From NCBI RefSeq assembly GCF_003334405.1, contig NZ_QOWM01000004.1: 64,000 nucleotides of DNA; one strand, written 5' to 3'. The notes under the pieces are model-generated. The model was not told the DNA's origin. It was given only the letters and a program-made list of their open reading frames with translations, and did not search any database. A program made the translations under genes and the position numbers. Positions 15,667-16,016 of the stretch are shown one piece after another; position 1 is the stretch's first letter, and each line of letters begins with the position of its first letter. The DNA comes from Escherichia coli (lineage in GTDB: Bacteria > Pseudomonadota > Gammaproteobacteria > Enterobacterales > Enterobacteriaceae).

Positions 15667-16016
15667 TAACTCCTTTCGAGCACGCAGTCGCTGGTGCAGT
15701 GGCTGCGCGCTGCAAAATTATCTGCTGTTTTTAACCTTTTCTTAAAGATTATTTCACTTCTCTTGTGTCGATTTGGCTTTATCACATAGAGCAAATATGC
15801 ATAAAAATTTGTTAAATACCGTTTTTTAATCCGAGCTATAGTCTCAAACCCTGGCTAAAGTTATTCTTGCGATGCTTTTATATAGCGAGCAGTGCTGGCC
15901 GGGAGAAAGTTCTCTTTTCTTACACCGCGCCGATAAAAAATATGCACGTTTATTGCATATCTTTCAGTGTGACAACTTTTGTTCGTTTGTTAACGAACTT
16001 TCAGAAGGAAAGAGAT

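Follow-up and report, generated by a model that had tools for sequence, protein, structure and literature searches.

The 17-bp element TATGCACGTTTATTGCA, which coincides with an inverted repeat upstream of potF, is very likely the core of potFp, the sigma-54-dependent promoter that drives the putrescine-uptake operon potFGHI. This promoter is already known and is catalogued in EcoCyc and RegulonDB. Finding the palindrome therefore amounts to rediscovering a catalogued promoter that ties putrescine uptake to the nitrogen-starvation response, and adds nothing new. The analysis does raise a modest and testable point: the only NtrC box near the operon follows potF and co-evolves with the promoter. 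It also illustrates that a genuine, conserved sigma-54 promoter can escape weight matrices because two of its most conserved bases are replaced.

We analyzed a 64-kb stretch of E. coli chromosomal DNA, referred to here as the window. A 601-bp segment around the palindrome is 100% identical to E. coli K-12 MG1655 and is found in 5420 of 5426 complete genomes, where it is annotated as ybjN followed by potF. The first gene served by the sigma-54 promoter is potF, whose ATG occupies 16017-16019. Older MG1655 coordinates (as used in PMC4591121) were converted to window coordinates by subtracting 876,990. We checked this mapping on two published sigma-54 sites. The centre of OS08 (892939) falls at 15949 and that of OS07 (882888) at 5898, and locating the OS07 motif at window 5890-5906 validated the conversion. 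Table 1 lists the features of the locus.

Table 1. Features around potF, in window coordinates.
Feature	Position	Strand	Basis or comment
ybjN end	15666
Strongly conserved upstream block	15735..15880	.	about -233 to -88 from predicted start; alignment of 15 genera
Palindrome ATATGCA-CGTTTAT-TGCATAT	15940..15960	.	coincides with promoter core
potFGHI sigma-54 promoter core (potFp) TATGCACGTTTATTGCA, very likely	15941..15957	+	ChIP-seq site OS08; conservation; orientation score
-24 element ATGCAC	15942-15947	+	G-24 at 15944
-12 element TTGCA	15953-15957	+	GC at 15955-15956
Predicted transcription start	15967..15969	+	11-13 nt after C of -12 GC; from sigma-54 geometry
Small conserved hairpin GTTCG-TTTGTTAA-CGAAC	15983..16000	+	predicted potF 5' UTR, just 5' of Shine-Dalgarno
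potF CDS (periplasmic putrescine-binding protein)	16017..17129	+	ORF list; identical E. coli DNA annotated in RefSeq
NtrC box CGCACCATTATGGTGCG	17177..17193	.	potF-potG spacer; candidate enhancer of potFp
Possible weak second NtrC box	~17195-17211
potG start codon GTG	17224

Sequence of the potF promoter core and published data

The element places TGCAC (15943-15947) and TTGCA (15953-15957) 5 nt apart, with GTTTA between them, which is the canonical N5 register. The first-pass annotation had counted a spacing of N6, which was a miscount, and had described one G of the GG as missing. There is no deletion; two bases are substituted, giving ATGCAC for TGGCAC. Aligned with xTGGCACGxxxxTTGCA, TATGCACGTTTATTGCA carries A and T at positions 2 and 3 in place of T and G. 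The GG-N10-GC register is exact, and three of the four key bases are present (the G at -24 and the GC of the -12 element). Position -25 is T and position -26 is A.

We scored the element with a sigma-54 weight matrix for which 40 other intergenic ChIP-seq sites served as training set. TATGCACGTTTATTGCA scored 6.6-7.0 bits, below all 40 of these sites (minimum 7.5), and ranked 74th when every 17-mer of the window was scored on both strands; shuffles yielded an expectation of 77.8 +/- 6.7 equally good matches. Its orientation was clear, with 6.6 bits forward versus -0.95 in reverse. T and G occupy positions 2 and 3 in 39/40 and 40/40 of the other sites, respectively. Restoring TG at these positions would raise the score to 19.3 bits, the rest of the site being near-perfect consensus, and a single T-to-G change would add about 6 bits. 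The first-pass annotation had proposed matrix scoring for both sigma-54 and NtrC sites; the sigma-54 score of the element proved to be at chance level, and an NtrC box was found, but after potF rather than upstream of it. Matrix matches elsewhere in the window included ATGGCGCGAATTCTGCA (53047-53063, minus strand, 16.9 bits), ATGGCAAGAGTTTTTCA within potH (19188-19204, plus strand, 13.3 bits), and the published site OS07 in the ybjG-mdfA spacer, TTGGCGAAGAAATTGCA (5890-5906, plus strand, 13.6 bits).

The inverted repeat has perfect 7-bp arms and a 7-bp spacer, just as first described, and allowing one mismatch extends it to 11-bp arms (AAAAATATGCA / TGCATATCTTT). It ends 56 nt before the potF ATG, which agrees with the initial estimate of about 60 bp. 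Repeats of this size are common in the window. Perfect 7-bp-arm inverted repeats with spacers of 0-20 bp occur 165 times versus 96.5 expected from Markov-1 shuffles, and those with a spacer of exactly 7 occur 9 times versus 4.3 expected. We therefore rejected palindrome statistics as support for the element. Neither the palindrome nor the sigma-54 resemblance rises above chance by sequence. What makes the case for a real element is its conservation, together with binding data from the literature.

The E. coli sigma-54 ChIP-seq study by Bonocora et al. 2015 (PMC4591121) lists exactly TATGCACGTTTATTGCA as site OS08 in its Table 1, which bears out the early suggestion of a weak sigma-54-type promoter element. 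OS08 was assigned to the plus strand in front of potF (b0854), with a predicted distance of 49 bp from start to gene. Its peak centre, 892944 (window 15954), lies 5 bp from the motif centre at 892939. The site has a fold-above-threshold score of 2, which puts its ChIP-seq signal among the weakest, and a PSSM score of 6.83. It is flagged 'P', for a promoter predicted rather than confirmed in EcoCyc (PMC4591121). RegulonDB includes potF among sigma-54-dependent promoters (PMC3118216). The highest RpoN-holoenzyme gSELEX peak also falls in the ybjN-potF spacer (Shimada et al. 2021, PMC8743547). That peak, at 892632 (window 15642), precedes the ChIP-seq motif by 307 bp, and its authors assigned it to TTTGCATGGTTCGTGGC (compare window 15535-15551), within ybjN (PMC8743547). 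At other shared promoters the offset between gSELEX and ChIP-seq is 5-72 bp. Of the two positions, the one from ChIP-seq has the better resolution.

Published RT-qPCR data show that nitrogen limitation induces the operon, and this was interpreted as RpoN- and NtrC-dependent, consistent with the reported nitrogen-limitation response of potFGHI that the first-pass annotation had mentioned. The RT-qPCR targets were potG and potI, not potF, and the authors named a 'potG promoter'. Zimmer et al. reportedly placed potFGHI under NtrC control in 2000, and Reitzer and Schneider are said to have predicted a potF promoter in 2001. Our literature search found no mapped potF 5' end, and potF is not mentioned in the text or supplement of an NtrC ChIP-seq paper (PMC4066584).

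Conservation of the element and alternative readings

We examined 80 loci with PotF relatives, taking one genome per species, for the promoter pattern ATGCA[CT]-N5-[TC]TGCA. The motif matched in 52 of these loci, spanning about 25 genera of Enterobacteriaceae, and always lay 75-125 nt before the ATG. These genera include Citrobacter, Enterobacter, Klebsiella, Raoultella, Kosakonia, and Lelliottia, as well as Phytobacter, Kluyvera, Pluralibacter, Buttiauxella, and Cedecea. The 52 loci contributed 51 distinct sequences. In these, every position of ATGCA and TGCAT is fixed (2.0 bits each), the information content of the spacer positions is 0.5-1.7 bits, and most of the flanking sequence stays below 1 bit. 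Spacer variants include GTTTA, GTTTC, ATTTC, AATTT, GGTTT, GATTC, and GAATT, among others. The core is thus under purifying selection around a variable spacer, as a sigma-54 promoter should be. Chance cannot account for -24 and -12 cores that stay fixed in about 25 genera while the spacer between them changes, and such a pattern is the footprint expected of a -24/-12 promoter. We regard this conservation as the decisive evidence for a promoter, where the letters of a single site would fall short.

The motif was absent from Yersinia, Rahnella, Pectobacterium, Dickeya, and their relatives among the 80 loci. Within the Enterobacteriaceae, Salmonella enterica subsp. diarizonae has a damaged -12 element (AGGCA), and in Yokenella a 2-bp deletion shortens the spacer.

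Additional sigma-54 motifs occur near potF in some genera. Kluyvera, Pseudocitrobacter, and relatives carry an insertion containing a canonical motif, TTGGCGAG(A/G)(T/A)T(T/C)TTGCA, that scores 15-17 bits (at about 1344-1360 in loci L041 and L018, 1343-1359 in L024, and 1219-1235 in L015). The non-canonical potF promoter follows about 80 bp downstream of this motif, or about 205 bp downstream in L015, which has a further insertion. These bacteria therefore have tandem sigma-54 promoters. Buttiauxella, Cedecea, and relatives (L059, L066, L071, L073, L075) have a motif inside the potF coding sequence, ATGGCGTGAATATTGCT, 335 nt before the potF stop and scoring 16-17 bits. Its E. coli counterpart, ATGGCGTGAATGTCTCG at window 16795, is without a -12 element.

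Sigma-54 RNA polymerase binds the -24 element, a weakened TGGCAC, and the -12 element at their canonical distance, facing potF. By analogy with other sigma-54 promoters, the polymerase would then wait as a closed complex. Phosphorylated NtrC, under nitrogen limitation, would remodel this complex with ATP, and transcription would begin near 15968 only then. A start about 12 nt past the GC is the usual geometry of sigma-54 promoters, and the predicted 5' UTR is about 50 nt long. A small hairpin with a conserved loop lies within this predicted leader (15983-16000). RNAalifold across 16 genera supported four of its pairs, three with compensatory double changes, and the stems in other genera read GTCCG/CGGGC, GCCCG/CGGGC, or ATTCG/CGGAT.

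Sigma-54 binding alone leaves one feature unexplained, namely that positions 2 and 3 of the 17-mer, where A and T depart from the -24 consensus, do not vary in any of the 51 distinct sequences. Either this particular weak form of the -24 element is selected, or the two bases are read by something else. The second option raises the prospect that ATGCA-N7-TGCAT also serves as the operator of some dimeric regulator, which would compete with sigma-54 polymerase and so freeze the A and T. We consider such an operator unlikely. The invariance of these two bases, set against the near-universal T and G at other sites, does fit it, as does the equally invariant T directly after TTGCA, which is the symmetry partner of the A; several regulators also bind the region in vivo. 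The same invariance could, however, mean that one particular weak -24 variant is favoured by selection, and the ygfT promoter, which carries ATATGC...TTGCAT, binds sigma-54 yet has no dyad. The arms are also not kept as a unit across genera. Five base pairs are perfect in 49/49 distinct sequences, but the sixth pair is formed in 34/49 and the seventh, which completes the 7-bp arm, in 22/49. By-eye comparison revealed no fit to the NtrC, Nac, PurR, ArgR, CRP, FNR, or Fis consensus, and the NtrC pattern in particular fails because the TGCA starts are 11 nt apart, not 13. With five invariant base pairs per arm and no match among the regulator motifs compared, the candidate operator of the first-pass annotation was left unsupported.

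The symmetry itself has a simpler source in the promoter. Four of the five invariant base pairs in each arm belong to the TGCA of the promoter elements. This tetramer is self-complementary, so any promoter that carries it in both elements necessarily forms a dyad. Most of the palindrome would thus be a by-product of having TGCA in both the -24 and -12 elements. The fifth pair (A15942/T15958), which is invariant, would come from the conserved A that precedes the first TGCA and the conserved T that follows the second. Information content falls to just 0.8-0.9 bits at the outer bases of the right arm, and the two further A/T pairs would match by accident in E. coli and its close relatives. We read the 7-bp palindrome as a promoter by-product extended by this local accident.

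It is very improbable that both the palindrome and the sigma-54 resemblance are coincidental and that potF is driven solely by sigma-70 or sigma-38 promoters in the upstream DNA. The chance-level matrix score and palindrome and the weak ChIP signal are compatible with that account, and the region upstream of the element contains a highly conserved block that binds Lrp, ArgR, and ArcA. Coincidence would not produce the invariant cores and variable spacer found across about 25 genera, nor a sigma-54 ChIP peak centred on the element, and it is at odds with the published NtrC- and RpoN-linked induction of the operon. Simple consensus scans of 15500-16100 for sigma-70 promoters and terminators also gave no plus-strand candidate. 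An additional upstream sigma-70 promoter for potF may well exist.

The conserved block spans about 150 bp between ybjN and potF, and its conservation across 15 genera exceeds that of the promoter. Conserved stretches within it include TGCATAAAAAATTGATAAAAGGCGTTTTTTAATCTG, GCTATAGCC, and CTGGCTAnAGTTATTCTTGCGA, and several genera have insertions of 30-70 bp directly after TTCTTGCGA. According to published work, including Lrp ChIP, the potF promoter has sites for Lrp, ArgR, and ArcA, and the block is probably a multi-regulator region containing these sites. A pattern search found no NtrC-like site in the block, and an Rfam scan of 15400-16200 returned only noise, far below gathering scores.

We effectively refuted the reading of the inverted repeat as an RNA hairpin in a transcript entering from upstream: a 7-bp stem is possible (-5.5 kcal/mol), but its stability is at chance level (z-score -1.06; 32/200 shuffles as stable), the stem is invariant rather than covarying, no U-tract follows, and the repeat lies upstream of the predicted start.

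An NtrC box downstream of potF

About 1.2 kb beyond the promoter, and 31 bp short of the potG GTG, lies the NtrC box CGCACCATTATGGTGCG. No other sequence in the 64-kb window matches TGCACC-N5-GGTGCA with at most 2 mismatches. Between ybjN and potF, we found no NtrC box in E. coli at up to 3 mismatches and none conserved in relatives. The box provides an activator site within looping distance of the promoter, in an unusual downstream position. A published NtrC gSELEX peak at 894130 (window 17140; intensity 95%) coincides with it, as does a published NtrC gel shift obtained with a 'potG' probe.

We compared the occurrence of the box and the promoter in 81 sequences, counting boxes with at most 1 mismatch within 220 bp after the potF stop. 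The box was present in 47/53 sequences that have the promoter motif versus 0/28 that lack it (Fisher 3e-16, uncorrected for phylogeny). Its half-sites are constant across genera, and its centres vary. In Salmonella diarizonae and Yokenella, the promoter has been lost along with the box. The promoter and the NtrC box may have been gained and lost together.

The box stops only 31 bp short of potG, and E. coli has no sigma-54 motif of 10 bits or more between the two, nor inside potF or potG. A conventional potG promoter therefore cannot be the target of the box. The box may feed potFp by DNA looping over 1.2 kb. The co-occurrence suggests, as the simplest reading, that it is an enhancer of potFp acting from 1.2 kb downstream, a proposal we make tentatively. 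We are similarly cautious about a broader possibility, that potFp is a deliberately crippled sigma-54 promoter, with its -24 ATGCA frozen in at least 25 genera and its NtrC enhancer located past the potF stop. In Citrobacter, a correctly spaced TGGTGCG-N4-TTGCA overlaps the NtrC box, where the E. coli sequence is 3 bp shorter. Because of this overlapping sigma-54 motif, the box may have, or may once have had, another role.

Reitzer and Magasanik reportedly found in 1986 that NtrC sites moved kilobases away or downstream still activate glnAp2. If the box is indeed an enhancer of potFp, E. coli would offer a natural example of a downstream bacterial enhancer that activates from inside the transcription unit, and the annotation of the potF-potG spacer would change. 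In that case the published reading of the spacer as a separate 'potG promoter' would not hold for E. coli, in which the spacer lacks a correctly spaced sigma-54 motif.

Comparison with other sigma-54 promoters

We compared potFp to the NtrC-dependent sigma-54 promoters glnAp2, glnHp2, astCp, argTp, nac, and ddpXp. All share the -24/-12 architecture and the GG-N10-GC register. Like other promoters of the nitrogen-scavenging regulon, potFp is bound by sigma-54 in vivo, is linked to NtrC-mediated induction under nitrogen limitation, and serves an operon for the transport or catabolism of a nitrogen source. It differs from them in having ATGCAC for TGGCAC; AT at positions 2-3 occurs in 0/40 other intergenic ChIP-seq sites. 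It also lacks an NtrC site at the usual -100 to -150, and the only good site is the one 1.2 kb downstream.

Among mapped sites, AT at positions 2-3 recurs only in the ygfT promoter (ChIP-seq site OS32, TATGCCCGTTTATTGCA). In E. coli K-12, the ygfT site ATATGCCCGTTTATTGCAT (locus L081, 3975-3993, minus strand) is identical to the potF element at 18/19 bases (ATATGCxCGTTTATTGCAT), spacer included, and its ChIP signal is weak, like that of potF. The shared spacer may be a coincidence because other genera do not conserve the potF spacer. Unlike potFp, the ygfT promoter has no palindrome and belongs to another regulon, in a neighbourhood of purine and urate catabolism.

A downstream enhancer also has a possible parallel in Bacillus subtilis. 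Belitsky and Sonenshein reportedly described in 1999 that rocG is transcribed from a SigL (sigma-54) promoter activated by RocR from an enhancer downstream of the gene. The activator and the organism differ, and the downstream enhancer at potF, unlike that of rocG, is proposed from where the motif lies, from NtrC binding in vitro, and from co-occurrence across genera. If that proposal is right, potF resembles rocG in that the activator site follows the stop codon of the first gene, at a distance of more than 1 kb from the upstream promoter it would serve.
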